From an uncultured virus (IMG/VR IMGVR_UViG_3300024507_000487) (taxonomy: Duplodnaviria > Heunggongvirae > Uroviricota > Caudoviricetes), in IMG/VR virus record IMGVR_UViG_3300024507_000487: a stretch of 64,000 nt of DNA, one strand, 5' to 3'. Of the stretch, positions 5,519 through 61,484 are shown piece after piece. Position 1 is the first letter of the stretch. Each line of letters starts with the position of its first letter. The notes under the pieces are model-generated. The model was given only the letters and a program-made list of their open reading frames with translations. It had not been told where the DNA came from and searched no databases. Position numbers and translations under genes: made by a program.

Positions 5519-5547
5519 TTATTATTGAATAATAGGAGAAAATACAA

Positions 5548-6207: not shown

Positions 6208-6368
6208 TACGACTCTTTAGTTCTTCTTCAAAAAGCATTTTCATATCAGATGAGAAGGGGAGATCGGTTTTATTAAACCATTCAATCTCCCCTCTTAAAT
6301 CATCTACAGTCATAGCCTTTAGCTTTTCTGCTATGTAGCTATTTGTAAGCAAAATAGTTGATATAAAA

Positions 6369-11857: not shown

Positions 11858-12507
11858 TATTGCTTCACCAAATAAAGTTTTTCTGTAAATCTATGGCAAA
11901 GAAAGTTATCTCCTATAATTGATAACGGAGTTCTTTCTTTTTGAAAAAGATTATAAGGTTTAATGCTTTCTATAACTAAACGATTTGTAAAAAAATTGCA
12001 TTCATTTGATTCTTCATCTGAAGAAAATGATTTTTTATAATTAGTAAATTTATAACCATTTTTTGATAATTCTTCATTGTTTGAATAACACGATCCAACT
12101 ATATAACTGCCATTATTTAAAATGGACGATGCCTTTTTTAAAAAATCTGGATAAAAAATAACATTTGGTTCAAAAAAACCACAAATATCATATTTATTTA
12201 AATATGTATACATAATATAATTTTTAACAGCATTTTTTTTATTGTCACACATTTTAATAAGTATTAGTTTAATATTATTAAAAATACCTTTTGTTAGAAC
12301 AAACCCTTCTTCAGTTTCTTCTATTTCAATATTTCCCATTAGATCAATAATGTTATCATCAACATCAGATGAAATATCTGTATCTATTAAATATAGATCT
12401 GTTTTTTTATTAGATGCCAATGATAAACTTTGTATAAAATCTTTTATAAAAGCATATCGTTGTTCTAAACAGACAAGTATTCCTATGCTTGTTTCATCGA
12501 AGGACAT
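11857..12507 (-). CDS. Divergent GT2-like protein
   Basis: LYLIDTD, GFFEPNVIFYPDFL, GSCYSN; GT-A-like order of elements but no DxD. Confidence 0.4.
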   Translation of the reverse strand: MSFDETSIGILVCLEQRYAFIKDFIQSLSLASNKKTDLYLIDTDISSDVDDNIIDLMGNIEIEETEEGFVLTKGIFNNIKLILIKMCDNKKNAVKNYIMYTYLNKYDICGFFEPNVIFYPDFLKKASSILNNGSYIVGSCYSNNEELSKNGYKFTNYKKSFSSDEESNECNFFTNRLVIESIKPYNLFQKERTPLSIIGDNFLCHRFTEKLYLVKQ

Positions 12508-13313
12508 ATATCTTTAATATCCTGCACTAAGTGTGTTAAATTTTGATCTTTAGCAAGGAAATCTATTTTATCTGAAATAAAAGAAAATTTGATATTGTTT
12601 TCTTCGTTTATGGCATCTTTGTTACCGCCAAATATATTAAAGCATTTATTTTGAAATAATGCTCCATTGTCTTTCTCTGCTTTTAAGAATATAAAACGAT
12701 TTAATTTTTCATTAATGCTAAAATCAATAGATTGAACATAATCAATAGGTATTTCAAAACCGCTAAAAAATACAGCAGAGAAAACGGACTTAGATTTTTC
12801 AACTATTTCATCTATGCCATCTTTATATGAAAATTCATCATGTACCATTTGTTTTACAAACCATTTAACATTACATTCAATTGGTTTGATGGCGTTCATT
12901 AATGCCCCTATTTTTATTGGGCATTTCTTTTCTAAAATAAAATGTATACACTCAAATTGAGTGTTTTGATTTAAAGCAGATTTAAATGTTTTAATTACAT
13001 CATCTATGTTATTAGACTCTTCTTTTAAAATGATTAAACATGTAATTCTTGTTGTTATATCTTTTCTAACTTTTTGTATTTTTTGTTCTAATGTTAGATC
13101 TTTTCCCCAAGGATCTCTCCTAATAGCCATGCACAATCTATTCTTAATTACATAAAATTTATCTGTTTCATCTTCAGCTTCAATAATTTCACACCCAGCA
13201 TTTTTAAACTTTTCTAAATTTCCGTATTTGCATCCAGTCTGGGTATTTCCATATTTATCAGAAAATACACAATACTTACAAGCTGTGTCCATAAACTTAT
13301 CATTTTCGCTCAA
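12483..13313 (-). CDS. Hypothetical protein (Cys-rich N-terminus, possible GT-like C-terminus)
   Basis: CKYC...GC...C N-terminus; overlaps neighbours in operon. Confidence 0.5.
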   Translation of the reverse strand: MSENDKFMDTACKYCVFSDKYGNTQTGCKYGNLEKFKNAGCEIIEAEDETDKFYVIKNRLCMAIRRDPWGKDLTLEQKIQKVRKDITTRITCLIILKEESNNIDDVIKTFKSALNQNTQFECIHFILEKKCPIKIGALMNAIKPIECNVKWFVKQMVHDEFSYKDGIDEIVEKSKSVFSAVFFSGFEIPIDYVQSIDFSINEKLNRFIFLKAEKDNGALFQNKCFNIFGGNKDAINEENNIKFSFISDKIDFLAKDQNLTHLVQDIKDICPSMKQA

Positions 13314-13801
13314 GGTCTTTCTCCTTCTATAACAACATAATGCTCAATAAATTTAATGTTTTTAATACTTAATCCAAGATTGTTGAATTTTTCTTTTATA
13401 GAATCAATAGTTAAACAAGCTTTCTTAACATCCCATCCTTCTATACATTTTCCATAAATAATTTCTTGGGCTTTTCCGTATTCGATTTGCCCTGTATATA
13501 TTCTTCTTGCAACAGAAACTATATCTGTAAAGCCAATTTTTAATAATCCTTTGTGAGCAAGTTTAGAAATCCATTGTGTTAATACAGAATCAATTTTATT
13601 ATATGAAACATAGTCAATAACATTCATGGCAATTATTTCTTCTGCTTCATTATCTTCTAAGTGTTGTTCTAAAATAGTTGGATTGCCTTCAACTATTAAT
13701 GGATAGTCTTCTTTTGTTGCGGTAGGATCAATATTTAAATATCCATTTTTAGCTAAATGTTTTTGATTTATCAAAAGATTTACTTTCATATGTTTTCCCA
13801 C
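13310..13801 (-). CDS. Divergent class I SAM-methyltransferase-like protein
   Basis: GYLNID...DNEAEEIIAMNVIDY...LAHKGLLKI resembles Methyltransf_11; glycine-rich motif I is lost. Confidence 0.55.
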   Translation of the reverse strand: MGKHMKVNLLINQKHLAKNGYLNIDPTATKEDYPLIVEGNPTILEQHLEDNEAEEIIAMNVIDYVSYNKIDSVLTQWISKLAHKGLLKIGFTDIVSVARRIYTGQIEYGKAQEIIYGKCIEGWDVKKACLTIDSIKEKFNNLGLSIKNIKFIEHYVVIEGERP

Positions 13802-14619
13802 CAGTTCTTTTTAATTTCATTTTTAAATAAGATATCCCAACTATTTAAATAATTATCAAAAGAAAACTTATTAACAATAGTAGATCTTGCATTATTACAA
13901 ATAGCCATTAAATGTTCTTTAGAAGATATTACTTTTTCACATATAGTTTTCATTTGTTTAAAATCTTCGCATAAAAATCCATTTTCTCCATGAATAATAA
14001 TTTTTTCATTTTCTTTTGTTTTAAACGCAATTGGACAACAAGCCGAAGACATTGCTTCTAACATAGATAATGACATTTTTTCATTTTTAGAAAAATTTAA
14101 ATAAACAATGCCTGTCTTATATATATTTAAAAGATCTTTAAAATTTCTTCTATTTTTATTATCTAGCATAAGAAAATTTAAATTTGATGTTACATAATTG
14201 ATCTCATTATGATTTACTTCTGATTTTCCATTTATATAGAAAAAAAGATTTGTTTTTTTAGAGTCTGGTATAAACAGATTTGTATCTATAGACAAGTCAT
14301 TTAAAAACTTAGTATTTTGTATTCCTAAATAAAAAGATAAATAATCATTCATTCCAGTAAAACTTAAAAATAAATCAAATGCATATTCATTTAAACTATA
14401 AAAACATTCTTCGTAATTTTGTAAAAGGTATATGTTGTCTGGTTTGTTTCTAAAATCTTTGTTCCAAGGTTCTTTGTTTTTTCTTGGTAATACATAAAAA
14501 TTGTGATTCGTTTTTGCTAAATCAAACAATATTCTTTCATCATATAATTCAGTCAATATATTAAGAGTTTGTTTGTTCTCTCTTAATTTCCAAACTATAG
14601 CATTAATTTGATTAGGCAT
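13786..14619 (-). CDS. Glycosyltransferase family 4
   Basis: SMLEAMSSACCPI...IIHGENGFL...NARSTIVNKFS. Confidence 0.8.
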   Translation of the reverse strand: MPNQINAIVWKLRENKQTLNILTELYDERILFDLAKTNHNFYVLPRKNKEPWNKDFRNKPDNIYLLQNYEECFYSLNEYAFDLFLSFTGMNDYLSFYLGIQNTKFLNDLSIDTNLFIPDSKKTNLFFYINGKSEVNHNEINYVTSNLNFLMLDNKNRRNFKDLLNIYKTGIVYLNFSKNEKMSLSMLEAMSSACCPIAFKTKENEKIIIHGENGFLCEDFKQMKTICEKVISSKEHLMAICNNARSTIVNKFSFDNYLNSWDILFKNEIKKNWWENI

Positions 14620-14674
14620 AACATCTCCGCCACAATAGTTTTAATATTGTAGCAAGTGTCTTACCTAAATCAAA

Positions 14675-15409
14675 TCATTCTCCAATTTTTTCTATGATAT
14701 ATCTTACTAAGCCATGTCTTTGAACATCTTCCGATGTTAAAAAAACTTTTGAAATTTCTGGATGATCTAATTTTTTTATTATCCAATCTAAAGGATTTCC
14801 GTCATTGTGTGGCAAATCACTTTGGCTTTTATCGCCACAAACAATCATTTTTGAATTTAAACCCAATCTAGTTAAAAACATCTTTACTTGTTTTTTAGTA
14901 GCATTTTGTGCTTCATCTAATATTATAAAAGAGTTATGGAAAGTTCTTCCTCTCATAGTCTCTAGTGGACAAACTTCTATTGCTCCAGACTCTTTTAATT
15001 TTTTAATTTCGTTTTTACTTATAAAATCAGAAAATGAGTCAAAAATAGGAACCATAAAAGGATCTGTTTTTTGCTCAATATCTCCTGGCAAATAACCTAA
15101 TCCATCGCCACATTCAACTATAGGTCTACTGACAATAATTTTATCTGTTTTACCGTCTAATAAATAACCGATGGCTACACCACAAGACAAATAGCTTTTC
15201 CCAGTTCCAGCTGGGCCTGTACAAATTGTAAGAGTCGATTGATTTATAGCATCAAAAAATATGCTTTGATTTGGTGTTTTAGGCTTTATTCTTTTTTTAT
15301 TTGTTACATCCTTATTTCTTTCTTCTTTCCAATTTTCTTCTTTTTGTTTATCCTTTTCCTCTTGATTTACAAAGTCTTTCCACTTAACGATTTTCTTTCT
15401 ATTGCCCAT
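14675..15409 (-). CDS. phoH: PhoH family ATPase
   Basis: GPAGTGKS, LGYLPG, MRGRTF, ILDEAQN, LTRLG, GDKSQSD. Confidence 0.95.
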   Translation of the reverse strand: MGNRKKIVKWKDFVNQEEKDKQKEENWKEERNKDVTNKKRIKPKTPNQSIFFDAINQSTLTICTGPAGTGKSYLSCGVAIGYLLDGKTDKIIVSRPIVECGDGLGYLPGDIEQKTDPFMVPIFDSFSDFISKNEIKKLKESGAIEVCPLETMRGRTFHNSFIILDEAQNATKKQVKMFLTRLGLNSKMIVCGDKSQSDLPHNDGNPLDWIIKKLDHPEISKVFLTSEDVQRHGLVRYIIEKIGE

Positions 15410-16494
15410 TTTATATTCTCTGCAAGTATTTTGCCGATTTCGGCATGGGAAAATGAAAAAGACTTATTTATACCGTTTTCTGACTTTTTTAGTCTGTCGT
15501 TTTCATTTGTGTAAGCCTCTCTCATAAATTTTCTGGTTTTTGATATATCTAGTTGCCACCAGATTTCATCCCCACGCCATATGTCGTGTCTATCCTTAAT
15601 CATATCAAATACTTGTGATTCAATGACGGGTATCATCCAACCACAACTATCATCCATATAATCTAAATACCCCGAAGAGGCTGGTACAATTGGGGTTTTT
15701 CCAAAACACATAGCTTCAAATGCTGGTATTGACCAAGCTTCACCATGAGATGTTTGTACAAAACAATCTGAGTTATAGTGTATTGAACATATTTCTTCTT
15801 CTGAAAGTCTTGTGTTTATTAAAGCTACTTCTGGTAAATAATTAATTTTTAAAGATGTTGCTATTTTATCGCAAAAAGAGAAGAATTCTTCTTGAGAACA
15901 ATTAGTTTTAACTAATAAGCAAACATTTTCATCTTTAGAAAATTCTAAAAAATAAGACATTAATAAGGAAGCAAAGTTTTTTCTACGATTAAACTCACTT
16001 ATAGTATAAAAAATAAACTTATTATTATTCTTAATTGGTTCCATAAATTTGGGAATTTTATATGAAGTAAAATATTTATCCGTGTTTGTTGCATGAGGTA
16101 CTATTTTTATATCGTTTTTAACACCGCTTTTTATACATGCATCATTCATTTGTTTATTAAAAACAAATACAGAATCCATGCAATTTAAATTGTCTTGCCA
16201 TCCAGAACCTTTAAAATTATCGGTTTCATACGCAAACATACCTATATTACAATAGCTAGAAACATATTGCATATGATTTGGTAGTGTATGCTGAATAATT
16301 ACATCAATATTATTAGGTTCTTTTTTTTCTATGTTTTCTATATCTTCTGGTATTTTTTCTAAGTTTCTTTTATCAAAAATCAATGGTCTACAAAAAGTAT
16401 TTATACCAATAGTATTTAGGCTTCTAATATATTCAATAGCAGCTTTTGCATAACCAGTAGCGGATCTATAATCACTAATATACAGAACATTCAT
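15367..16494 (-). CDS. Glycosyltransferase family 4
   Basis: TGYAKA, RKN, SHGEAWSIPAFEAMCFGKTPI. Confidence 0.85.
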   Translation of the reverse strand: MNVLYISDYRSATGYAKAAIEYIRSLNTIGINTFCRPLIFDKRNLEKIPEDIENIEKKEPNNIDVIIQHTLPNHMQYVSSYCNIGMFAYETDNFKGSGWQDNLNCMDSVFVFNKQMNDACIKSGVKNDIKIVPHATNTDKYFTSYKIPKFMEPIKNNNKFIFYTISEFNRRKNFASLLMSYFLEFSKDENVCLLVKTNCSQEEFFSFCDKIATSLKINYLPEVALINTRLSEEEICSIHYNSDCFVQTSHGEAWSIPAFEAMCFGKTPIVPASSGYLDYMDDSCGWMIPVIESQVFDMIKDRHDIWRGDEIWWQLDISKTRKFMREAYTNENDRLKKSENGINKSFSFSHAEIGKILAENIKWAIERKSLSGKTL

Positions 16495-18050
16495 TTAGAA
16501 ACTCTCATTTCTTCCCAATGATTAATAGATTCTCTTAATTTATTTAAAAAAGCAATTATTGATTCTCTATCTGTTTTCATTCTGTTCTTTTCAAATTTGT
16601 TAAATAATTTTCTTTTAAAATCAAATTTTACTTTTTCAATTTTTTTTGATTTTACTGATAAAATGTTTTCAAATGCTGCGTCAATAAATTCGTTATCTTC
16701 TAATTTAGAGTAATTAAAATTTTTTGCCACTATATTTATCTTTGGCGAATTCCAATTTTTTGCTGGTTTTAACTTTGATATAGTGTTTATCCAAACATTA
16801 GCGGATTTATTATAACTGTAATTATCTCTTGCTGTAGATGCTATCTCAAATCGCTTTCTACTTCTTAAGAACTCTGGCAAAAGAATTAGATCTTTTAGTT
16901 TATTTGCTAAATCTATTTTATCTGGATTAGCTATTCCACGATGTGTTTCACTTTCAACGCTTAAAGAATAGTTTATTGGTGTTGCTAATATAGTTTCTGG
17001 CATATCTTGCATTGCAGAGTAGTTAACGCAAAAAACTGGCACACCACAATATGCAGCTTCTACCTGTGGCATTCCAAAACCTTCGCATATAGAATATTGA
17101 ACTAAGCAATCAAATCCATTGTATATTTTTGCCATAGATTCTTTAGAGATTCCATTTTTTGTTCCTGCTGTAAAACATGACTGATTTTTACAATTTAAAC
17201 AATAAATACAATTACCCTTCCATACAGATGGGAAAAAATAATTACATTCCTCACAAAGATATGTAAAAAATATTCTGTTTGAAACTCCTGACTCTATCAA
17301 CATTCTTGGTATGTTCCAACCAAGGTCTGGATAAGATGTATGTAGATATAAATATGTTTTAGATGCGATCTCTATAGGTAATAGAGATAACAGTCTATTA
17401 AATGCAAAAACCAGATCTGGAAAAAGTTTTCTTTTTTGGTTCCTCATTACAGAACCAATTACAAAAGAATCTTCTGGTAAACCTAATTCAAGCTTTAATT
17501 CTTTTGGATTATCAAAAGGAACAAAACAGTCATCTGCTGAAGGAGATGCTATATCAATAACATTGATTTCTGGATAATTAGATAATAGTTTTTTTGCCCA
17601 TATAGAATATGTAAGTATAGCATCGGCACAAGAATATAAAGATATCCACTCTTTTGTTTGTCCAATGCCATCAACTGGTGGCATATATACCCAATTATAG
17701 TATTCTCGTAATGGAGAATCAGATATAAAAGAATCCATCCACGGATCTCTAAAAGAAATAACCGTGTTTGGTTTAAAGTCTAAAAGAACATTTTCAAAAA
17801 CATATTTACCAAAAACATTTTCTTGATCGGATAAAAATACAGATAATTGTTCATCTGACATATTAGCAGGAACAGCTGGATATATTTTCCAAGGTACAGT
17901 TTCATCTACCTTGTCTGTATAGCTAGATATTTCTGCTATTTCAAATTGATTTGTACTATACAAACGAGTAAGAATCTCCTTGCCATAAACAGAATATCCC
18001 GTGTTTAAAGATGTGCTATCATTGACAAGGAGAATCTTATATTTTGACAT
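16491..18050 (-). CDS. Glycosyltransferase family 4 with Cys-rich insert
   Basis: NTGY, RNQKRK, EGFGMPQVEAAYCGVP; CEEC...CLNC insert. Confidence 0.85.
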   Translation of the reverse strand: MSKYKILLVNDSTSLNTGYSVYGKEILTRLYSTNQFEIAEISSYTDKVDETVPWKIYPAVPANMSDEQLSVFLSDQENVFGKYVFENVLLDFKPNTVISFRDPWMDSFISDSPLREYYNWVYMPPVDGIGQTKEWISLYSCADAILTYSIWAKKLLSNYPEINVIDIASPSADDCFVPFDNPKELKLELGLPEDSFVIGSVMRNQKRKLFPDLVFAFNRLLSLLPIEIASKTYLYLHTSYPDLGWNIPRMLIESGVSNRIFFTYLCEECNYFFPSVWKGNCIYCLNCKNQSCFTAGTKNGISKESMAKIYNGFDCLVQYSICEGFGMPQVEAAYCGVPVFCVNYSAMQDMPETILATPINYSLSVESETHRGIANPDKIDLANKLKDLILLPEFLRSRKRFEIASTARDNYSYNKSANVWINTISKLKPAKNWNSPKINIVAKNFNYSKLEDNEFIDAAFENILSVKSKKIEKVKFDFKRKLFNKFEKNRMKTDRESIIAFLNKLRESINHWEEMRVSK

Positions 18051-18442: not shown

Positions 18443-19570
18443 TTAAAGTTGGTTAATGTCCTTTAAAACCATAGCATCTGTTTTGCGATCACGATCAACA
18501 CGAATCAAAACAGTATTTCCTACAAATACTTTATCTAGATGCATTTCGTAAGCATCTGGAAATATTATAGCATTGTCTATTTTACAAGAAGAATCGGATA
18601 CAGTTAATCTAGCCATTCTTCTACCAGGATCTTTTCCATTTTTTGTAACTATTTCTTTAACATCTAATATTTCAACTGACAATACCATAAATCCAGTTTT
18701 ACCAAAATAAAATTCTTTGCATGTTGTATTAGCAGATTGATTTTCTATTCCATCCGTTAATGAACATGATAGTGCTATGCCAAGATTTTCTCTTTCTGAC
18801 CAAACTTTCCAAGATATTGGATCATTATATTCAGTTGGAGGATTTTCTAACATATTATATAAATCAGATGTTAATGAAATACGATTTTTATTACTGCATC
18901 CACCACCTTCTTTTTTAGGTTTTGATAAAGCTAAAATGCATTCTTTAAGATTTTTTGTTTCTTTGCAATTTTCTTTAATCCATTCTTTTTCTTTTTCTGT
19001 TAATTGATTCCAAGTTTCTAATTCAGATATAAGTTTTTGTCTATACTCGCCACACCAATCAAAACCGCCGACAGCAATAACTTTTGCTACTGATGTAGAA
19101 GAAATAGAGTCTGAACAATAAATTAAAAATTTAATCCAACTATCTATTTTTTCAGATTGAGAATTGAAGCAAGAAATAAGTTTACTTATTTGTGAAGTAC
19201 CTATTCCTTTTATATCGGACAAGCCAAACCAAATAGATTCCCCATCAGTATAAAAGTTTGACTTTAACATTCTGATATCTGGAGGATATACATTTATATT
19301 ATAAAGCTTTGCATTGTCTATTAGATCGGCAACTTCTTGAGAGCTATCAGCTTTATCTTTTGCGTAAAAAAGCCAACTCGTAAAAAATTGTACTGGGAAA
19401 TGACTTTTTAAATAAGCTGTATCATATCCAGTAAAGCCATAGGCGGAACTGTGACTGTTTGATACCGCAATTCCATTCGCATAAAAGATATGTTCTTCAT
19501 TATCAACTTCAATATCTAATGTTTCAATAATTCCTATTTTTTTAATTGACACGATTGATTCAGGCTGCAT
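18443..19570 (-). CDS. dnaE: DNA polymerase III alpha part 3 (C-terminal HhH/OB region) preceded by a 38-aa split-intein IntC
   Basis: IntC ...DIEVDNEEHIFYANGIAVSN followed by extein SHSSAYG...YLKSHFP, FGLSDIKGIG, ERENLG and an OB fold. Confidence 0.92.
   Translation of the reverse strand: MQPESIVSIKKIGIIETLDIEVDNEEHIFYANGIAVSNSHSSAYGFTGYDTAYLKSHFPVQFFTSWLFYAKDKADSSQEVADLIDNAKLYNINVYPPDIRMLKSNFYTDGESIWFGLSDIKGIGTSQISKLISCFNSQSEKIDSWIKFLIYCSDSISSTSVAKVIAVGGFDWCGEYRQKLISELETWNQLTEKEKEWIKENCKETKNLKECILALSKPKKEGGGCSNKNRISLTSDLYNMLENPPTEYNDPISWKVWSERENLGIALSCSLTDGIENQSANTTCKEFYFGKTGFMVLSVEILDVKEIVTKNGKDPGRRMARLTVSDSSCKIDNAIIFPDAYEMHLDKVFVGNTVLIRVDRDRKTDAMVLKDINQL
19457..19570 (-). mobile_element. 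Split intein C-terminal half (IntC, 38 aa)
   Basis: Block F (LDIEV...HIFYANG), terminal Ser-Asn and +1 Ser. Confidence 0.9.
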
Positions 19571-20463
19571 TGTATTTCCTTTATTATAATGCCTTCGTTA
19601 TTTAAAATATCGCTTTCCCAAAATCTAATAAGTTTTAGTTTATTATCAAGACAAAACTTATTTTTTACTTTGTCTCTATAAAAATTAATCTTTTGAGTAT
19701 TCGTTTTTGGCCCATTTGGATAAATCTTTGGATTAACATGAAAATAATCTCCGTCTACTTCAATAAATAAATTATAATCTTTTAACCAAAAATCAAAAAT
19801 CCAACATTCTATAATCTTTTCTTCTTCAAAATTTAATTTTAATTTTTGTAAAATACTTTTCATTAATAAATGAGGCTTGGTTTTTGTATGTTTAAAAGCT
19901 CCTTTTTTAATTCTGTTTAAAGTAGCTATAGACATTAATTTTTTTGAAAACTCTGAATGTTTAATTCCTGTATGACCATGAATCAATCTTTTTTTAGCAG
20001 ATATTGATTGTTTGTTTTTAGATTCTTTTGATGTTTTTTTACCAATCCTATACAAAGACATCTTTTTACCATATTCTGAATTTTTCTTATTCATCCCTAA
20101 GTTCCAAGGTTTTTTGCCAAACATTGGATTGTTTTTACCAATTCTAGAAATTTTTGCATCTTTAGACCATTTTTTTGATCCTTCGTATCTACCACATGCA
20201 TATTCTTTCCAGAAAAAACCGTTTTTATTTTTATTTCTTAAAATTATTTTTGTTTTTTTATTGCATTCTCCGCATTTACAAATAGGTCTTATTATTTTAA
20301 CTATTTTTTCAAAATAGTCTTCTAAAGAGATTTTATGAGAAACTATATGTTGAGCCATGGCTTTAGAAAAATAAACATTAGAGCCTCCATAAAATTTTTT
20401 AATTTCATGTAAGTTTTTATTACATAGAAAACATTTATTCCAAAAATTCTTTTCTATTTTCAT
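19534..20463 (-). CDS. Free-standing homing endonuclease (Zn-finger/NUMOD3 + Vsr/DUF559 domain) between the split-intein halves
   Basis: CKCGEC, GKNNPMFGKKPWN, GIKHSEFSKKLMS, FDF...FIEVDGDYFH...DKVKN...LIRFWE. Confidence 0.85.
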   Translation of the reverse strand: MKIEKNFWNKCFLCNKNLHEIKKFYGGSNVYFSKAMAQHIVSHKISLEDYFEKIVKIIRPICKCGECNKKTKIILRNKNKNGFFWKEYACGRYEGSKKWSKDAKISRIGKNNPMFGKKPWNLGMNKKNSEYGKKMSLYRIGKKTSKESKNKQSISAKKRLIHGHTGIKHSEFSKKLMSIATLNRIKKGAFKHTKTKPHLLMKSILQKLKLNFEEEKIIECWIFDFWLKDYNLFIEVDGDYFHVNPKIYPNGPKTNTQKINFYRDKVKNKFCLDNKLKLIRFWESDILNNEGIIIKEIQCSLNQSCQLKK

Positions 20464-20490
20464 AGTATCACCTATGACTTATTACACCGA

Positions 20491-20781
20491 TTATTCTAGG
20501 TCACACATAATACTATAGTTTTTTTCTAAAATATCATAAAGCGTTCTTTTTTTACCATCAGAACATAATATTTTGTGATTTAATGTGCATTTTAACTTTT
20601 TGCCACTTGATGTTGTTATTTCATAAACTTCTTGTTTTCCATTATTTATTTTATCTTTTACTTTAATAAAAATATTTTTTTTATATTTGATAGATGGAGC
20701 TAAAACATAATCATTAATATTTAATTCTTTAAGTGTTTTAAAGCCTTCTTTTGTTTCTACTACAGAATCTGGAGACAAACA
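20491..20781 (-). mobile_element. Split intein N-terminal half (IntN, 96 aa)
   Basis: Block A CLSPDSVVET; block B KCTLNHKIL (TxxH); stop shortly afterwards. Confidence 0.9.
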
Positions 20782-21393
20782 TTTATTAAATGAATATCTT
20801 TGACTTGCTTGTATCCAACCAAATAACTCTTCTGCTTGTTCGTCAGAAATAATCTTTGCTTTTTTAGCACCGTCAATAAACATCTTTTTGCAGTTAGCCA
20901 TTTCTTGGGTATTTTTTTTACCAATAGCTTTTCTCAAAACATCAGCTTCTTGCAAGTTAAATCCAGCAACAGCTTGTGCTATTTGCATAGCTTGTTCTTG
21001 AAAAACTAAAGCGCCATAAGTTGGTTTTAATATTTCATCAACGGATTCATGATAACTAGGAACTTTTTCTAAGCCATTAACTCTTTTGCAATAATGTTCT
21101 GTCATAGAAATTCCATCTTCGTCTAATGCACGAAGACAACCCGGCCTTAAAAGTGCGCCAAGAGCAGATAAATGCTCCATATTTTTGGGTTTTAATTTCT
21201 TTGACCATTGTTTACCAAGATGAGATTCCAATTGAAAAATGCCCTTGGTATCACCATTTGAAAAAATTTTCCAAGCTAAATCACAATATGGTAAGTTGTG
21301 TAAATTTATTTTAAGCTTTGGTATTTTTCCATTTTTAGATGGTTCTAAAATTGGCCACTTACAACCACAATCAAATTTATAAAAATCTTCCAT
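20491..21393 (-). CDS. dnaE: DNA polymerase III alpha part 2 (fingers) fused to a 96-aa split-intein IntN
   Basis: GIFQLES, ALLRPG, TYGALVFQEQAM, ADVLRKAIGKK, YSFNK then CLSPDSVVET...CTLNHK; start MEDF chosen from the GAGGT SD. Confidence 0.92.
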   Translation of the reverse strand: MEDFYKFDCGCKWPILEPSKNGKIPKLKINLHNLPYCDLAWKIFSNGDTKGIFQLESHLGKQWSKKLKPKNMEHLSALGALLRPGCLRALDEDGISMTEHYCKRVNGLEKVPSYHESVDEILKPTYGALVFQEQAMQIAQAVAGFNLQEADVLRKAIGKKNTQEMANCKKMFIDGAKKAKIISDEQAEELFGWIQASQRYSFNKCLSPDSVVETKEGFKTLKELNINDYVLAPSIKYKKNIFIKVKDKINNGKQEVYEITTSSGKKLKCTLNHKILCSDGKKRTLYDILEKNYSIMCDLE

Positions 21394-21400
21394 TATTACC

Positions 21401-22066
21401 TCAAGATATAAAGCCCTTTGCAGTACCAGAGTTTTCATTTAAAGAGTTTTTAAAGTTAACTCTCGTAGCTACTTTTCTATGTAGTTGAATAAAACTTTTC
21501 AATAGTAAAGCTGTTTGTTTAACATCTACTAATGCATCGTGAGCATTTGCTGTAGAAAGACCGAAAAATTCTCTTAAAGTATCCATTTTATGATCACGGA
21601 GTTCATTAGAATTATCAAACCATTGAAAAATAAAATCATCTAAATCAAAAACGCTTCTTTTATTAAATAAGTTTTGTTTTCCGTTTTTATCACAATCGCC
21701 AAATTCTTTTGCTAAACGATTAATAATAATTAAGTCAAAATGCCTAATGTTTTTTCCAGCTGCTATTGGAGCAAAGAAAGTGTTTCCTGGTTTTGGATTA
21801 TATTTTTTAATAAACGATGTAAAAGATTTCCAAACAATAGAAAGATCTGGAGCCTTTTCTAATTCTTCAATGCTTTTCTTGTTTATTTCAAGAGCTTCTT
21901 TTTCCAATTTTGAAAAATCCCTTGGTTTAATCAAGCTGCTATATTGACCAAGCTCAGTTAAACTTCTTGGATGCAAAGCCATCGCTGCAACTTGTATAAC
22001 TTCACAAGTTTCTGGGTTTACACTACCAGTTTCAAAATCAAAAACAACTATAGTTGAATTATTCAT
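21401..22066 (-). CDS. dnaQ: DEDDh 3'-5' exonuclease (Pol III epsilon-like)
   Basis: VFDFETG, NIRHFD, AHDALVDV. Confidence 0.85.
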   Translation of the reverse strand: MNNSTIVVFDFETGSVNPETCEVIQVAAMALHPRSLTELGQYSSLIKPRDFSKLEKEALEINKKSIEELEKAPDLSIVWKSFTSFIKKYNPKPGNTFFAPIAAGKNIRHFDLIIINRLAKEFGDCDKNGKQNLFNKRSVFDLDDFIFQWFDNSNELRDHKMDTLREFFGLSTANAHDALVDVKQTALLLKSFIQLHRKVATRVNFKNSLNENSGTAKGFIS

Positions 22067-22073
22067 TTTCTTC

Positions 22074-22319
22074 CTATTCTAGATCTAAGGTTTTTTTAAT
22101 TTCAAGTTTCAATGTGCCTTCTTCATCATATTTTAAATCTACATAAAACTCATTGCTTTTTGCAGCTTCTAAAAATTCAGATTTAAGATTAACTTTTCCT
22201 CCTAATTTAAAAACCAAAGCTTTCATTAACATCAATGTTTCTTTTATAACAACATCTTTTGTTTTAATTTTTTCATGCAAAGAAACAAGTTCATCTTGTA
22301 GATCGCCTTTTCGTTTCAT
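22074..22319 (-). CDS. Hypothetical protein
   Basis: 81-aa ORF coupled (ATGA overlap) to dnaE part 1. Confidence 0.6.
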   Translation of the reverse strand: MKRKGDLQDELVSLHEKIKTKDVVIKETLMLMKALVFKLGGKVNLKSEFLEAAKSNEFYVDLKYDEEGTLKLEIKKTLDLE

Positions 22320-24229
22320 AAACTTTCTCCAGCAAGAAGTTTTTGAACGCCCATCATTTTATCCAAAACTGCAACCCCAAGAATATCAAATTTAACAAGC
22401 CCAATAGATTCAAGATCAGACATTTCTAATCCAGCTATATTTTCATGAGATGTTTTATCATAAATCATAGGGCATATATTTTGTAAATTCTCAGAGGCAA
22501 TTACTATTCCAGCAGCATGTTTGCTTTGTGATCTTTTAGTTCCTTCCATCCTTATTGCTTGGGCAAAGTATTTTGCATATTGACCTTCTAATGTTCCGTC
22601 ATCTTTTAGTTTACAATATGGATCTAAATCTTTTTGGCAATTTTCTAAGGCCCATCTAATTATAGAAGGTTCTTGTCCTTCATCTCTCATTTCTTGTAAT
22701 TCTTCGGTTATTTCAGCTTCATCTGGAATATGTTTTGTTATTAGATTGCTTTCTTCAAAGCTACAAGCAGCGTGAATACGCAAAACATCTTTTAAAGCAC
22801 CTCGGCCTTGCATTCTTGTAAAAACAGATATTTGAGAAACTTTATCATTACCATATTTGTTTTTAATATAGTTAATAATCTCTTCTCTTTTTGATATTGG
22901 GAAATCACAATCAATATCTGGCAAACTAATTCTTCCTGGAGCATTACGACCAGAATTATAAAATCTTTCAAACAATAATCCGTTTTCAATTGGATTTATT
23001 TCAGTAATTCCCAATAAATAACTAACCATACATCCAGCGCCAGATCCACGACCTTTGCCAATAAGCCACCCCTGTTCTCTCGCCCAATTGCAATAATCAT
23101 AAACAATTAGGAAATAGTCTTCTAAGCCAGCAGAAGTTATAACTTCTAATTCTTTAGTGACTCTATCTCCATATTGATTAAATTTTGGGTCTTCTTTTTT
23201 AAAAGAAAATCTTTTTTTCCAACCTTCTCTACAGAGTCTTTTTATTTCTGATGACGATGAACTATCTCCAGTTATTTTTGGCAACATAGGAGATTTCAAA
23301 ATACTATAATCTTTGCACCTGTTAAATATTTCAAATGTATTTTCTATCTCTTCATTAGAGTTTAATTTAGAAATTTCTTCAAAAGACGGTATATGATAAT
23401 TATTTGATTTAAAAAAACCAGAAAAACCAAAGTCTTCATCGTTTTGAATATGATTTCTAATATCATTTAATGTCTTTTTCATCGAACAAGCTAACAAAAC
23501 TCTTTGGTCAACAGCATCTTCTTTTCTTGCATAATGAGCATCTGGTGTAGCAACGGTTTTGAAACCGTGCTTTTTTGCTATATGTCTTAAAGCTTTAGCT
23601 ATTATTTTAGTCGCTGGTATGTTTTCAGAATCTATTAACTGTATTTCTAAGTAAAAGTTTTCTTTTCCAAATAAGTCTGCGTATTTATATGCTAGATCAG
23701 TAGCTTTCTTTTCCCAATTAGGATCAATTAATGACTTGGCGTGTTCAAATGTTTCTGCTCTATATGCTTCTGTTAAGTTTGTAAATAAACAATTTCCCAA
23801 GTCAGAACCTGGGTGACCAGAAAAAACAATAAAGGAACCATTTGAAATAGACGCAAGAGTTTTAAGGTCAAGTCTTGGTTTTCTATAAAAGTTTTCTGGA
23901 GAACTAGAAATAGAACTAGCTTTTACTAAGTTCTTCCATCCAATATCTTGTTTTGCAAGAACACATAAATGACTTAGTTTTTTATTATCTTCATTCTTTA
24001 TTGTAGGTTCATTTTCACATATATAAAATTCACAACCAAGTATTGGATCAATAGATTTGGATTTTAACTTTTTATAAAATGAAATAGAACCAGATAAAGA
24101 TCCATGATCTGTTAATGCACAACCTTTTAATCCAAGTTCTGATATCCTATCTGCTATTCTTTCAGCAGAAGGAAGTCCATCAAGCAATGAATATTGCGAG
24201 TGAACATGCAACGGAATCCAATTTGACAT
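22316..24229 (-). CDS. dnaE: DNA polymerase III alpha part 1 (PHP + palm/thumb)
   Basis: LHVHSQYSLLDG, TDHG, GRGSGAG, LLFERF, PDIDCD, KHAAG, GLVKFDILG; stop 19 aa later. Confidence 0.95.
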   Translation of the reverse strand: MSNWIPLHVHSQYSLLDGLPSAERIADRISELGLKGCALTDHGSLSGSISFYKKLKSKSIDPILGCEFYICENEPTIKNEDNKKLSHLCVLAKQDIGWKNLVKASSISSSPENFYRKPRLDLKTLASISNGSFIVFSGHPGSDLGNCLFTNLTEAYRAETFEHAKSLIDPNWEKKATDLAYKYADLFGKENFYLEIQLIDSENIPATKIIAKALRHIAKKHGFKTVATPDAHYARKEDAVDQRVLLACSMKKTLNDIRNHIQNDEDFGFSGFFKSNNYHIPSFEEISKLNSNEEIENTFEIFNRCKDYSILKSPMLPKITGDSSSSSEIKRLCREGWKKRFSFKKEDPKFNQYGDRVTKELEVITSAGLEDYFLIVYDYCNWAREQGWLIGKGRGSGAGCMVSYLLGITEINPIENGLLFERFYNSGRNAPGRISLPDIDCDFPISKREEIINYIKNKYGNDKVSQISVFTRMQGRGALKDVLRIHAACSFEESNLITKHIPDEAEITEELQEMRDEGQEPSIIRWALENCQKDLDPYCKLKDDGTLEGQYAKYFAQAIRMEGTKRSQSKHAAGIVIASENLQNICPMIYDKTSHENIAGLEMSDLESIGLVKFDILGVAVLDKMMGVQKLLAGESL

Positions 24230-44248: not shown

Positions 44249-44657
44249 TTATTTTTCTCCTCATACAATTTCCTTCACAAAAAAATCCGTTCTTTTCATA
44301 AAAAGAAATCATATTTGATTCACAATGTAAACACAATTCATGGCACATGTTATCTTTTGCAAAATTATAACAATGTTCTAATAGTTCATAAGATATATTT
44401 TGTCCTCTGTATTTTTTTTGAACACAAAGATTTGTAATATAGCAACTATTTTTATTTTTTTTAGAAAATAAATCTATAGTTATAGTTCCAGCTACTATGT
44501 TATTAATATAAAAACAAAATATTTTGCTGTTCTTTTTCAACAAATATTGAACAAATCTTTCTAGTTCTATTTTAGCTATAAAAAATACACCTATTTCTTT
44601 AAGGCAATCAGAATAGCCATTGTATATATCATTTAATGACAATTCTTTAATTTCCAT
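44241..44657 (-). CDS. GNAT acetyltransferase (GNA1-like)
   Basis: ITNLCVQKKYRGQNIS...FYEKNGF. Confidence 0.82.
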   Translation of the reverse strand: MEIKELSLNDIYNGYSDCLKEIGVFFIAKIELERFVQYLLKKNSKIFCFYINNIVAGTITIDLFSKKNKNSCYITNLCVQKKYRGQNISYELLEHCYNFAKDNMCHELCLHCESNMISFYEKNGFFCEGNCMRRKINV

Positions 44658-45699
44658 AAATATAATCCGTTATTAACGAAGCTGTTTTTTCCCATGTTAA
44701 TTTTTTCATTTCATCGTATGCCTTTTTATTAAAATTATTTTTAAGGTTTTTCACCTTGATCATTTTACTTGCAAATTGATTTATAAAATTGTCATCAAGA
44801 TTTGGCCAATATCCTTGACCAAAAAACCATTTATTATCATATGCTTTTACTAATTTATCTACATTTACCAATTCACATATTTCATTGTTTATAAATTCTT
44901 TATGAGCAGTAGCATTTGTAGCTATACAATTTTTTCCCATAGAAAGCATTTCTGCTAATTCCATATTCCATCCTTCAGCCCTAGCAGGAAAAACACCACA
45001 ATCTGCATATGACATCAATTCAAATAATTCTTGTTGTGTTTTAAATCTATGGCTAATCTTTATTCTTTTGTCAGAAGAATAATAGCTTTCCCAATTATTT
45101 CTTTCTTCTTCGTTTAAAAACGGATTGTCACAATGCATTATAAGTTCAACATCATTGTCAGATGGGAATGCCTTTTGAAAAGCTTTTATTAAAATGTCAT
45201 GACCTTTTCTTATTTCCCATTTACCAACATTTAAAAATGTAAATTTGTTTTTGTTTAATGCTTGCTTTGGTTTATCAAAAATAGAATGATCAACACCAAA
45301 CGGAGTTTTAAATATTTTTGTTTTAACACCAGAGTTTATAGCTATATCAACAGCCCATTGAGTTGGCAAAAAAATTATATCCATACAATTCATTTGATGA
45401 ACTTCATGTTTTTGTAGTGGCTCTAATTCAAATATTGGTAATGCAGTTCTAATTCCTTTAGATGGATGCATAGATAAATCATTTTGATGCCAAATTTTTA
45501 AACTTGAAGCATCTTTATCATAAAAATCAGACTTTTTATTTAAATCTTCAAAAAATTGATAATCATTTATAGATTTGTCTATTTGTCCTATTGGCCATAA
45601 AAAAACATCGAGCTTTTTAGCAATTTCTTTAACTATGTTCGTAGATACTATTCCATATCCAAGTTGGTTAACTGGACATACTATATTAATCTTTTTCAT
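44647..45699 (-). CDS. Glycosyltransferase family 4
   Basis: LGYG, VGKWEIRKGHD, ARAEGWNMELAEMLSMG. Confidence 0.85.
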   Translation of the reverse strand: MKKINIVCPVNQLGYGIVSTNIVKEIAKKLDVFLWPIGQIDKSINDYQFFEDLNKKSDFYDKDASSLKIWHQNDLSMHPSKGIRTALPIFELEPLQKHEVHQMNCMDIIFLPTQWAVDIAINSGVKTKIFKTPFGVDHSIFDKPKQALNKNKFTFLNVGKWEIRKGHDILIKAFQKAFPSDNDVELIMHCDNPFLNEEERNNWESYYSSDKRIKISHRFKTQQELFELMSYADCGVFPARAEGWNMELAEMLSMGKNCIATNATAHKEFINNEICELVNVDKLVKAYDNKWFFGQGYWPNLDDNFINQFASKMIKVKNLKNNFNKKAYDEMKKLTWEKTASLITDYIYGN

Positions 45700-52841: not shown

Positions 52842-53285
52842 ATGATCAATTTACCATTGGCTGATAGACATTGTAGTGATTGTGATGTTTGTTGCACAAT
52901 TTTAATTGTTCAAGAACTAAACAAGCCAGAATATACAAATTGTCATCACCAAAACAAAGGCTGTATGATTTATGATACAAGACCGGAAATATGTAGAAAG
53001 TGGTCTTGTTCTTGGGTTTTAGGTATTTTGCCAGGCGATGAAACCATTAGACCCAATAATCTTGGTTTAATGTTTTATCCAGCACCAAAACAAAATGATC
53101 TTGGTTTTGCCCACATGCTAGGTCAAGAAGTGTGGGAAAATGCATCTGATTCAGAATTAGGAAAATCTGTAATAAATTATATAGCCAAACACATGCTTGT
53201 TTTAATAAGGAAGTATGGATCAAATTCAATTAAATTTGCTGGCCCGAAAGAACAACAAGAAGCATTTTTAAAAATTGCTAAATAG
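52842..53285 (+). CDS. YkgJ-family CxxCxxCC protein
   Basis: CSDCDVCC...CHH...CMIYDTRPEICRKWSC. Confidence 0.8.
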   Translation: MINLPLADRHCSDCDVCCTILIVQELNKPEYTNCHHQNKGCMIYDTRPEICRKWSCSWVLGILPGDETIRPNNLGLMFYPAPKQNDLGFAHMLGQEVWENASDSELGKSVINYIAKHMLVLIRKYGSNSIKFAGPKEQQEAFLKIAK

Positions 53286-54528
53286 ATATTTCTCCTGGTA
53301 TTCTTATATCGTTTGATATTTTTAATAAGTCCGCTTTAACATATAAGATGTTGTGAGTTTTATGCCATTCTGTTGGGAAGAAATTTTTAATTCTATTTAA
53401 TTGAAATCTTACTGGTGTTCCAATATATTTTGCGGTTTCTGCTTTAGTATAATACCAAAAACTATTACTATTCCAAAAACTTATATGAGTTGGATCTTGA
53501 AAAGCTCCTCTTCCGTCAGTTGATGGAGTTTGTGTTAAAAACCATCCCAAAGGAGATAAGCAACGATAAGCTTCTTTCATAACATGGATTGGGTTTTTTA
53601 AATGCTCTAATGCATCGTGCGCCCTTATAACACCAACAGAATTGTCTTCAAAAGGCCAAGGATTATTTAAATCGTGTACGATATTTCCGTTTTCTAGATC
53701 AACAGATTTATATCCAGCAGGACTATTAAAACCGCCACATAGATCTATTTTTAAAAGACCGTTTAAGTCTGACCATTTTTCTGCTAATTGATATATATAT
53801 CTATCGTGTATATTTAGTGTTTCCTCTTGAATAAAAGCGTTTTTCTCTCCATAACATGTATTTCCTTTATGCCTATAATATATATAAAGACATTTATCCA
53901 AGTGTTTTACATTTCCATGTATATATGTTCTGCAAAGAATGTCATGATCATCTAAGACATCCATTTTTTCATTATGTCCACCGATTTTCTCATAAAAAGA
54001 TTTCTTCCAAGCTCTAACATGATTTGGTGCAAACCATATTTTTGAAAAGCAAGCTGCTGAAGGTTCAAAAGAAATCAATTCTAAAAGTTTTTTTCCATTA
54101 TATTCAAATGGTCTATTTCTCCATCCATATACATCAGAATAAACAAATGGTTTTCCATTAAAGTCTATCTCTGCACAATTTGAGTAAACAAAATCTATAG
54201 ATTCAGATTCATTAAAACACTTATGCAACTCTTCTAAACAATCTGGAGTTAATTCATCATCGTGATCAACTTCGACAATAACATGACCTTTCCCAGCCAT
54301 TGACGCTTCTTTTTTAAATAAACCTATTAGTTTTGAATCTGGTTTGGATGAATTTATAATTCTTGGTTTTAAACTTAAAGAATCCAAATCAATAGTAGCA
54401 TTGCCATTTGGTAAAACTACCCATTCAAAATCTTTAAAAGCTTGATTTGCTAAAGACCTAGACAGTCTTGGCAAATATTGTCCATTATTCGTAGGTGTTA
54501 CTATTGAAAAGTATGGCATTAGTTCCAA
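53278..54528 (-). CDS. GT2 glycosyltransferase fused to a SAM-methyltransferase-like domain
   Basis: FSIVTPT, EVDHDDEL, DDHDI; C-terminal IDLCGG...AHDALEH...QDPTH. Confidence 0.85.
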   Translation of the reverse strand: MELMPYFSIVTPTNNGQYLPRLSRSLANQAFKDFEWVVLPNGNATIDLDSLSLKPRIINSSKPDSKLIGLFKKEASMAGKGHVIVEVDHDDELTPDCLEELHKCFNESESIDFVYSNCAEIDFNGKPFVYSDVYGWRNRPFEYNGKKLLELISFEPSAACFSKIWFAPNHVRAWKKSFYEKIGGHNEKMDVLDDHDILCRTYIHGNVKHLDKCLYIYYRHKGNTCYGEKNAFIQEETLNIHDRYIYQLAEKWSDLNGLLKIDLCGGFNSPAGYKSVDLENGNIVHDLNNPWPFEDNSVGVIRAHDALEHLKNPIHVMKEAYRCLSPLGWFLTQTPSTDGRGAFQDPTHISFWNSNSFWYYTKAETAKYIGTPVRFQLNRIKNFFPTEWHKTHNILYVKADLLKISNDIRIPGEISI

Positions 54529-58005: not shown

Positions 58006-59286
58006 TTAAAAGATATCTAGAGGTTTTCCTTCTGTAATAGCCATGGGTCGTCCAATGTTGTCTCTAATTTGAGCAGATAGATCCATATCTAAAGCTTTAT
58101 AAACAGTAGCATATACATCGCCTATTGAGCATGGCTTATCCTTAATGTCTAAACCATCTTTGCTAGTAGAACCATAAGCTTGTCCACCCTTAATGGAACC
58201 TCCGCCTACTACTATAGACCAACATCTTGCCCAATGATCTCGTCCACCATTTTGATTAATCTTAGGTGTACGACCAAATTCGCCCATCCATAAAACTACA
58301 GTATCTTTCCAAAGACCAATATCGTTTAGTTCTTTTACAAGGTTTCCAAAACCTTTATCAAGCCGAGGGCCATTACCATTCCTAATAGTAGAAAAGATAT
58401 TATTATGATTATCCCATCCGCCGAGATCCACTTGAACACAACTAACTCCCTTCTCAATTAATTTTCTTGCAAGAAGGCATCCCATGCCAAACTGATTCAT
58501 CCTACCGCCATAAGCATCTATAGTCGCTTGGCTTTCGTTCTTTATTTCAAATACAGTTCTAAGTGGCGAAATAGTTAGATCAAATGCTTTACCATATATA
58601 GAAGCATGTGATTGTGCGACATTACCTAAACTTTCTCTGTCTTTTGCACCTTTTACATGAGGCATTATCTTTGCAGCAAACTCATCTTCTATTCCGTAGA
58701 ATAATCTCTGCCTTCTTCTAAGACGCTCTTCTTCATTGCCAATTTCTGATGGTGGCTTTATATTTTCTGGAGGAACGCCAGGATTTTGCACAACAAAAGG
58801 AGTGTACATTGCGCCAAGGAATCCTGGCCCAATGCGTTGTGCAGTTCCACCAATTCCAATAAAATTAGGTAATGGCAACTCTTTAGAGCCAATCATAGAA
58901 GATACAACTGCGCCCATAGCTGGATATTGCACTACTGGGTTTGGTTGCTTGGCCGTATTCATTAAGAATGTGCCACGCTCATGACTGCCTTCATTAGTAA
59001 CCAAAGATCTAATAGCCACCAAGTGTTTGAACTGTTCAGCAACTGTTGGCAATACCTCACTAATCTGCACTCCGTTTGCAGAAGTTTTGATCTGTTTAAA
59101 GTCTCCACCAGTTGATTCTCCTGTCTTCAAATCCCATAAATCCATATGACTTGGGCCACCACTCATCCAAAGCACAATGAGTCTTTTTCCCTTTTTCTTT
59201 ATGGTTTCTTGCTGTGCATATAGATTAGATACTAATGCAAGAGAAGCAAATTCTGTTGTATGCTGTAAAAAGTGTCGCCTGTTCAT
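58006..59286 (-). CDS. DUF1501 family protein with twin-arginine signal
   Basis: MNRRHFL, LWMSGGPSHMDLWDLK, GCLLARKLIEKGV, GGWDNH, GEFGRTPKIN, GRDHW. Confidence 0.92.
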   Translation of the reverse strand: MNRRHFLQHTTEFASLALVSNLYAQQETIKKKGKRLIVLWMSGGPSHMDLWDLKTGESTGGDFKQIKTSANGVQISEVLPTVAEQFKHLVAIRSLVTNEGSHERGTFLMNTAKQPNPVVQYPAMGAVVSSMIGSKELPLPNFIGIGGTAQRIGPGFLGAMYTPFVVQNPGVPPENIKPPSEIGNEEERLRRRQRLFYGIEDEFAAKIMPHVKGAKDRESLGNVAQSHASIYGKAFDLTISPLRTVFEIKNESQATIDAYGGRMNQFGMGCLLARKLIEKGVSCVQVDLGGWDNHNNIFSTIRNGNGPRLDKGFGNLVKELNDIGLWKDTVVLWMGEFGRTPKINQNGGRDHWARCWSIVVGGGSIKGGQAYGSTSKDGLDIKDKPCSIGDVYATVYKALDMDLSAQIRDNIGRPMAITEGKPLDIF

Positions 59287-59937: not shown

Positions 59938-60579
59938 TTAAAAGCCATTAGTCCAAATATAAGAACGAAAATCACCATACGCCCAAATAAGTTTAAATCC
60001 TTCTAGTTCTTTTTCGCACAATGGATATTGTACACCGCTGAGAGAAAGTTCTTTGTATACAACTTGTTCAAGAGACTCGCCATTTTCTAATTTATTTCTC
60101 CAAGTAATACGATTTAAGGCAGTACCAAGATAGCCACCATGAGGCATCATTTTTTCTAAAATTAAAAATGCTCCACCATTCTTACATTTGTGTTTAAGTT
60201 TTTCTATAAAGTCAGTTCTTTTACTTGGATGAATAAAGCACAATGCTAAAATACTTGTTGCGAAAGAAAACTCTCTTATACATATATCTAGCATGTCGCC
60301 TATTATTAGACTTTGATAATCACCAATATAGTACGGTTCCATTTCTTGACATTTTTCAATAGCATAAAACTCAATATTTCTTTCTTTTATTTTATCTCTT
60401 AATGCTAATCCAACATTGCCTGTACTTGCCCCAAAATCATATACCACACTATCTGGTTCCATATATACAGATGCAATTTCTGGCAAGAAATGTCTTAAAA
60501 AATCTTCATGCCAAAATAATTGACCTTTAATGTGTTCATTAAAAGTTGGCGCTGCTTTTGCAAAATCAAACATGATCAA
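59938..60579 (-). CDS. cmoA: CmoA-like (carboxy-SAM synthase-like) SAM enzyme
   Basis: FDF...FNEHIKGQLFWH, VYDFGASTG, LCFIHPSKR, GGAFLILEK, K.ENG.S...K..SL.GV. Confidence 0.7.
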   Translation of the reverse strand: MIMFDFAKAAPTFNEHIKGQLFWHEDFLRHFLPEIASVYMEPDSVVYDFGASTGNVGLALRDKIKERNIEFYAIEKCQEMEPYYIGDYQSLIIGDMLDICIREFSFATSILALCFIHPSKRTDFIEKLKHKCKNGGAFLILEKMMPHGGYLGTALNRITWRNKLENGESLEQVVYKELSLSGVQYPLCEKELEGFKLIWAYGDFRSYIWTNGF

Positions 60580-61484
60580 TCCTTAATAGTTTCCTTATGA
60601 TATTTATTTAAGCATTCCGCAATATATTTAACTGAAGGAACATGCATTCCACAATATTTATACTTATCTGTATCTGAGGCATTAGTTAAATGCCAATCAT
60701 CGGGAAAACCCATCAGTCTAAGTCTTTCTGTTGGCGTTACTCTTCGTATATTTCCTTTAGACACTACTAAATCTGTAAAAGATTTATAATCTCTTTTAGT
60801 TAATGTGGAGGATACTCCGCATTCATCAAATTGATCACTTCTTTGGCGAGTAAAGTAGGCAAAGGCTTGTTCCCTTTTTTCGCTCTGCTCAAAATACCAC
60901 TTAAAGCTTTTTTTGACAGACTGTACTTTTCGTTCACATTCTGTTGTACTACGCTCTCCAAGTTGGAAGATATCGGCGTTGGCGGAGATTCCATCACGGA
61001 CTCCGAGAATGTAAACTCTGCGTCTTCTTTGTGGTGTTCCGCAGAATTGTGCATCAATGGTCGTATAAGTCGCATCGTACCCGATTTTGGCAAGGTCTGA
61101 GAGAATTGTGTTAAGCCCTCTTCTAAGGAGCATAAAGACATTTTCAATGACACAATATTTTGGTCTGACTTCTGTGACTGCTCTAAAGAATTCTTTCCAG
61201 AGAATAGATCTTTTTCCATAAATACCGTCCTTTGTTTTACTTGCTATAGAAATGTCTGTGCAAGGAAATCCGCCCACGATCACATCAAACTGATTTGATT
61301 GATATGTTATTTTTGTAACATCGCCAAAGTTTGGTATAGATGGAAAATTCTTTTTTAATACTTCGCTAGGATATTTGTCTATTTCTGCGTTGGCTGTTAT
61401 TTCGTAATTACCAGCTTGTTGAAAAGCCAGAGAAAAACCACCAATACCAGCAAACATATCATAAACTTTTAAAGTTTCTTCCAT
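60576..61484 (-). CDS. dcm: DNA cytosine-C5 methyltransferase
   Basis: FAGIGG, GGFPCTD, IENV, PQRRRRVY, TPTERLRLMGFPDDW. Confidence 0.93.
   Translation of the reverse strand: MEETLKVYDMFAGIGGFSLAFQQAGNYEITANAEIDKYPSEVLKKNFPSIPNFGDVTKITYQSNQFDVIVGGFPCTDISIASKTKDGIYGKRSILWKEFFRAVTEVRPKYCVIENVFMLLRRGLNTILSDLAKIGYDATYTTIDAQFCGTPQRRRRVYILGVRDGISANADIFQLGERSTTECERKVQSVKKSFKWYFEQSEKREQAFAYFTRQRSDQFDECGVSSTLTKRDYKSFTDLVVSKGNIRRVTPTERLRLMGFPDDWHLTNASDTDKYKYCGMHVPSVKYIAECLNKYHKETIKD
60800..61219 (-). CDS. Nested alternative-frame ORF in the C5-MTase gene (beta-subunit-like)
   Basis: 139 aa open inside dcm; TLPKSGTM and LESVV...KYSLSKKALSGILSRAKKGNKPLP motifs. Confidence 0.55.
   Translation of the reverse strand: MEKDLFSGKNSLEQSQKSDQNIVSLKMSLCSLEEGLTQFSQTLPKSGTMRLIRPLMHNSAEHHKEDAEFTFSESVMESPPTPISSNLESVVQQNVNEKYSLSKKALSGILSRAKKGNKPLPTLLAKEVINLMNAEYPPH

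Follow-up and report, generated by a model that had tools for sequence, protein, structure and literature searches.

The window analysed here, 64,000 nt of DNA from an uncultured virus (IMG/VR record IMGVR_UViG_3300024507_000487), carries on its minus strand a C5-cytosine DNA transferase gene (60576..61484) followed by a gene for a CmoA homologue (59938..60573). Our preferred reading, which we consider reasonably probable, is a two-chain, CmoY-less cytosine carboxymethyltransferase that is distinct from CmoX, has its own CmoA and a relocated arginine, and ends at 5-carboxymethylcytosine (5cxmC). It starts from gene identities, gene linkage, residue conservation and selection on a nested reading frame, all of them observed. 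The CmoA homologue would turn SAM and host prephenate into carboxy-SAM (Cx-SAM), and a C5 transferase composed of a main chain and a small +1-frame chain would place the carboxymethyl group on C5 of cytosine at a fixed site in the phage DNA, by the usual mechanism through Cys75. With Met at the position of Asn304 in M.HhaI and Arg350 in CmoX, the carboxylate would probably be held by Arg254 of motif IX. As no CmoY ligase was found, the modification would probably end with uncapped 5cxmC, which may protect a limited set of sites.

The idea of a CmoA-dependent carboxymethylation pathway is not new, since it has been published: Yang et al. (Nat Commun 2025, December 2025; PMC12783734) describe how phage CmoA and CmoX make 5cxmC. 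In Synechococcus phage S-B43, by that account, CmoA supplies carboxy-SAM, CmoX modifies the cytosine of GC, and CmoY attaches glycine. The authors define CmoX by SPPC together with Arg350 at the Asn304 position, R350N is inactive, and the survey kept only sequences with both SPPC and Arg350 (PMC12783734). A previous reading of the window, made from the sequence only, had allowed that similar pairs might already have been described, and CmoA-CmoX is such a pair. The pair in the window most likely works like CmoA-CmoX, yet by the published test it is not a member.

The window is AT-rich phage DNA with genes for DNA polymerase III alpha, primase, helicase, RecA and PhoH; over 47.7 kb it is 99.99% identical to IMG/VR contig G002. 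This contig (206 kb, rated 100% complete; L038-L048) probably combines two related phages; its interpretation as one genome with two copies of the pair was rejected, its self-repeats being 70-79% identical over blocks of tens of kb.

The sequence-only reading had paired a CmoA-like gene with a C5 transferase, and both identities stand. The transferase (302 aa) matches PF00145 (E=2e-56), and its predicted model has the C5-MTase fold (pLDDT 84). Motifs I (FAGIGG), IV (GFPC), VI (ENV), VIII (QRRRR), IX (TPTERLRL) and X (YCGMHV) are present, with the Asn of motif X replaced. The downstream product, a putative carboxy-SAM synthase of the KELSLSG subfamily (211 aa from ATG 60573), has E. coli CmoA as its best solved relative by sequence (E=6.6e-10). 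The supposed overlap of the transferase stop with the cmoA start holds only for an alternative TTG start at 60579, the sole start that overlaps the upstream stop; it fails for the ATG at 60573, which lies 2 nt past the transferase TGA and aligns with the starts of the closest CmoA homologues. An AAGGA ribosome-binding-like site (60580..60584, minus strand) precedes this ATG within the last transferase codons, as one precedes the transferase gene, and translational coupling of the two genes is plausible. A promoter scan returned 9 sites against 14.9 expected, and no terminator was found.

In the M.HhaI alignment motif X reads KYCGMHV, as had been noticed before, with Met280 (codon 60645..60647, minus strand) at Asn304 and Cys278 at Phe302; in motif IX, Arg254 (codon 60723..60725, minus strand) falls at Cys279. 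The mechanism formerly proposed for this motif was borrowed from engineered M.MpeI N374K, in which one pocket change switches a C5-MTase to Cx-SAM (cited in PMC12783734). Because the residue in the window is Met, not a basic one, that analogy does not carry over; the family of the window enzyme, here called GM, has an invariant motif-IX Arg instead. Work on other methyltransferases shows that Cx-SAM can be favoured either by a basic residue or by extra space (PMC7496830).

The GM alignment joins the window protein with the best 120 of 1197 homologues, 121 rows in all. Met280 occurs in 120/121 rows, Arg254 likewise in 120/121 (one gap each), the catalytic Cys75 (codon 61260..61262, minus strand) in 121/121 and the Phe of GFPC in 120/121, while position 278 is Asn in 102/121 and Cys in 14/121. 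The catalytic motifs are thus intact in this alignment, which counts for carboxymethylation. Among the best 150 cluster representatives of a profile search, of which 1 read Arg at motif X and 81 were unreadable, the motif-IX Arg co-occurs with motif-X Met in 14/14 and with Asn in 0/54. Loss of the motif-X Asn thus appears to go with gain of the motif-IX Arg, and Arg254 is a candidate replacement carboxylate-binding residue. Judged by these residues, GM is a family separate from CmoX, marked by invariant Met280 and invariant Arg254. Two other candidate residues were ruled out: His281 as a compensating basic residue (Ser/Thr in 101/121 GM rows) and Lys230/Arg231 of the TRD as a GM marker (KRDY/W occurs in Asn-type relatives too and is missing from two GM representatives).

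As in the S-B43 system (PDB 8YF3), a phage CmoA homologue adjoins a C5-MTase homologue without the motif-X Asn, and GM enzymes keep the catalytic Cys, the ENV Glu and the motif VIII Arg of SpCmoX. Unlike SpCmoX, the window enzyme has GFPC rather than SPPC, Met rather than Arg at position 350 and a new motif-IX Arg; it is 20% identical to 8YF3 in a structural alignment and falls in a separate clade. With neither SPPC nor Arg350 it is therefore no CmoX as defined in PMC12783734, and membership of that family was ruled out.

A quick tree of 51 rows (17 GM, 10 Arg-type, and Asn-type rows picked as GM neighbours) recovered GM and Arg-type enzymes as one group each (SH-aLRT 100 and 99), with GM nested among the Asn-type rows. 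An AU test did not reject a single clade of GM and Arg-type enzymes (p-AU 0.54; the constrained tree was 1.3 log units higher). Because of that value and of the choice of Asn-type rows, an origin of GM separate from CmoX is plausible and is not established by the tree. We offer only tentatively, and with less confidence than the preferred reading, the proposal that carboxymethylation arose a second time, in a two-chain family whose carboxylate-binding Arg passed from motif X to motif IX, which uses any available cmoA or the host's and which the CmoX filter missed; more boldly, lid-altered CmoAs might make another SAM derivative and so lead to an undescribed base.

The best NCBIfam match of the CmoA homologue is TIGR00740 (CmoA), at 61.7 bits against a cut-off of 193.3. 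The active phage enzyme SpCmoA is also below this cut-off (115.6 bits), and TIGR00740 is the best family for all four GM neighbours tested. The predicted model resembles E. coli CmoA (4IWN and 4GEK, TM 0.87); CysG entries ranked better by E-value but had lower TM (0.76-0.81). The fold with its helical lid and the SAM-binding residues are present, and the positions of Asp62, Gly64, Ser66, Asp89, Asp117 and Glu164 are kept or conservatively changed. Unlike in E. coli CmoA, the positions of Tyr39 and Asn132 are changed and the gene adjoins that of a DNA enzyme, not cmoB.

A further difference concerns the carboxylate ligand of E. coli CmoA, Arg199 (PMC3663124), whose salt bridge is missing in the window homologue, which has Glu175 there. 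This feature is dispensable in phage enzymes, because active SpCmoA has Glu at that position too, but SpCmoA has an Arg four residues on that the window homologue lacks. The homologue also lacks the QRP Arg present in most relatives, and about half of the GM-partnered CmoAs have Arg at neither place. Arg155, kept in 28/28 rows of the window's CmoA clade, CmoX partners included, may to judge from its conservation stand in for Arg199.

Related CmoA proteins serve GM and CmoX enzymes. The GM partners belong to two starred deep clades, of which one contains SpCmoA and the other Moraxella phage Mcat8, and in the tree 37 rows of GM partners are interleaved with 15 rows of Arg-type CmoX partners (4 label changes, at least 2 of them forced). 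At 49 more distant loci of the KELSLSG subfamily the partner is an Arg-type CmoX in 38, a GM enzyme in 7 and neither in 4; 19 of those 38 Arg-type loci also have CmoY.

GM loci were collected with a family-specific DNA pattern, which gave 55 viral, 2 genome and, among the matches listed, 80 metagenome loci. With three Vibrio phages there were 140, of which 137 had a readable gene (L290, L307 and L313 were dropped). The control set of 76 Asn-type loci is the product of a two-pattern profile scan that was swamped by generic methylases. With the same CmoA profile, CmoA was found beside 54/55 viral GM loci, as it is in the window, and beside 0/76 Asn-type loci. A broader profile that included GM neighbours found it at 121/137 readable loci and in 22/29 clusters at 70% identity; in 118 of the 121 the two genes touch or overlap, with cmoA upstream or downstream. 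Since the GM loci are redundant, include copies of the window itself and come from one DNA pattern, these counts do not represent independent events. The neighbourhood check called for by the sequence-only reading came out in favour of a conserved pairing. Gene linkage and the published CmoA-CmoX system (PMC12783734) lend good support to its idea that cytosine receives a carboxymethyl or other non-methyl group.

CmoA is missing at 16 GM loci, of which 5 reach a contig edge; the other 11 have a long-tailed form of the enzyme (4 of these 11 also have short flanks), with a C-terminal tail of 64-77 residues and conserved F-x-x-x-G-x-Y-R ... S-x-F-S (L030, L031, L032, L248, L271, L283). The tailed form occurs in three Vibrio/Enterovibrio phages (S4-7, 1.052.A and 1.233.A), whose records have no cmoA, and in a Colwellia genome having its own cmoA-cmoB; in the order of Colwellia, CmoA exceeds the cut-off in 56/61 genomes. 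A Clostridia genome has the short form, and its only cmoA copy adjoins the GM gene. The pattern, based on few named hosts, fits a rule by which the GM locus brings cmoA where the host lacks it. P0151, P0152 and L323 are GM enzymes of 593-654 aa, the first two with an intein-like insert at the catalytic PC motif.

Nested within the transferase gene, and missed by the sequence-only reading, is a +1 frame of 139 codons (60800..61219, minus strand), whose ATG has AAGGA 8 nt upstream. In 46/46 readable family representatives (3/49 were unreadable) this frame stays open over 117-140 codons, the +2 frame over 15-84. In synonymous simulations the frame had 7.2 stops on average, and 0/20000 were free of stops. 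Identity at four-fold sites is 63-86% over codons 105-222 and 28-33% elsewhere (44 sequences). The nested frame is under strong selection.

The putative nested chain probably binds the main chain as a second subunit, as the predicted complex suggests. This scored 0.91, against 0.43 for the best of three controls; the runs share at least 90% of contacts, and the partner has pLDDT of at least 73. The score mark, attained by 116/157 solved and 2/215 mismatched pairs, applies roughly here, and passing it may partly reflect likeness to single-chain folds. Predicted contacts to the small chain include residues 252-253 and 256-257 and not 254, which weakly fits Arg254 facing the core. A recoded synthetic transferase gene could give a false negative because recoding destroys the nested frame. 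A nested-chain profile matched 72/76 Asn-type loci, mostly by its N-terminal half, which makes the nested frame not special to GM, though such matches could mirror motifs conserved in the main frame; it had no match at Arg-type loci.

M.EcoHK31I is an alpha/beta C5 methyltransferase whose beta chain is encoded in another frame and carries motif IX (PMC2836561). As the window probably does, it encodes a second polypeptide in another frame that lies wholly within the methyltransferase gene. It differs in that motif IX is on beta only, where the window has it on the main chain, and in being an ordinary methylase, unlike the proposed window enzyme. M.SpyI, considered as another two-chain precedent, was dropped, being supported neither by PMC4260502 nor by the nested-chain profile.

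The window also differs from the S-B43 system in having a nested +1 gene and no CmoY found. Our CmoY profile, which found the S-B43 control, matched none of the window, G002, the complete relative G003 and the three Vibrio phages, and 0/137 GM loci; PF00733, whose ability to detect SpCmoY is not established, matched 0/4 and 0/5 records. The asparagine-synthetase-like ligase of the CmoA-CmoX-CmoY system is accordingly not among the genes seen here.

ACGT, CGCG and GCSGC are absent from both the window and G003, and GCGC is absent from G003; these sites are therefore avoided, not shielded. Anti-restriction cover, which the sequence-only reading had supposed, cannot for this reason be broad. GC or CG is an unlikely target of the window enzyme, GCGC and GCSGC being purged in G003, which would set it apart from SpCmoX. 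A target search by word counts in six sequences gave exclusions only, with no common signal. The whole window (1-64000) lacks ACGT, CGCG, CASTG, GCSGC, CGWCG, GGATCC, ATCGAT and TTCGAA, a strong restriction-site avoidance.

The GFPC motif and the nesting of GM among Asn-type methyltransferases in the free tree would suit an ordinary 5mC methyltransferase with an odd motif X, linked to cmoA for some other reason (SAM draining or tRNA modification), and a non-Asn residue at the motif-X position need not alter the chemistry: DNMT3A has Arg at the M.HhaI Asn304 position, yet methylates. We consider this unlikely. CmoA and a methylase would have to compete for SAM, the Asn-type loci have no CmoA, the CmoA partners of GM are drawn from different clades and stand in both gene orders, and no cmoB-like gene was noted among the 93 ORFs scanned. 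One difficulty for the preferred reading is that Arg350 matters in SpCmoX, since R350N is inactive (PMC12783734), which counts against a GM enzyme that lacks it.

A shade less likely is that the CmoA-like protein of the GM lineage forms not carboxy-SAM but another SAM derivative, from which the GM enzyme transfers a group to give an undescribed base. The window protein and many GM partners lack the lid arginines of E. coli CmoA and SpCmoA, and Met at the pocket position is no carboxylate ligand; against this, the CmoAs of other GM enzymes are nested among those of Arg-type CmoX, Arg155 is shared throughout the CmoA clade with the CmoX partners, and GM forms without cmoA are found where the host has ordinary CmoA. 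The least likely of these alternatives is that 5cxmC serves only as an intermediate and receives its cap from an enzyme unrelated to CmoY, or that the transferase uses both SAM and Cx-SAM. Native S-B43 DNA has the capped base only (PMC12783734), and candidate modifying enzymes are encoded at other places in the genome by GNAT, glycosyltransferase, radical-SAM and 2OG-oxygenase genes; none of these adjoins the pair, however, and the CmoY profile that found its S-B43 control was blank at the GM loci and in the six sequences scanned.

Because entry to the published survey required both SPPC and Arg350, the GM family lies outside it. No description of the family was found among the papers listed on phage carboxymethylcytosine, CmoX and phage CmoA with DNA methyltransferase. 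If GM enzymes carboxymethylate as preferred here, 5cxmC occurs more widely than the survey shows, and some phage enzymes annotated as 5mC methylases, among them those of cultured Vibrio phages, produce a different base. There would then also be a second natural Cx-SAM design, probably with a different target, useful for DNA labelling and footprinting. If they only methylate, the tight cmoA link requires a new explanation.

Other arrangements of these genes were also seen. A second C5-transferase homologue (L217:6162-7181, minus strand; L247:8248-9297, plus strand) has its cmoA in common with a GM enzyme; its motif X, YERCSGIP, is neither GN, GR nor GM, it lies near the Arg-type clade in the tree, and it is possibly a third CmoA-linked lineage. 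In a cultured phage, Staphylococcus phage PhiSepi-HH3 (L035:4666-5673, plus strand), a non-Arg C5-MTase with motif X VVGGVIN and FGSPC adjoins cmoA. In Erwinia phage Y3 (L036:4803-6471), cmoA occurs with a CmoY-like gene, and no C5-transferase lies within 5 kb.

Near the pair, a DUF1501 gene (58006-59286, minus strand) of higher GC with a signal-peptide-like start looks like a host-type gene and may hint at a planctomycete host. Elsewhere in the window (4691-18050, 44647-45699 and 53278-54528) there are at least 7 glycosyltransferase genes, one fused to a methyltransferase domain, together with genes for a cobalamin adenosyltransferase, a B12-type ribonucleotide reductase and an ATE_C protein. 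DNA polymerase III alpha is encoded in three pieces (18443-24229, minus strand), between which lie a Hint/intein domain and a DUF559 nuclease-like ORF; the same region has an exonuclease gene.
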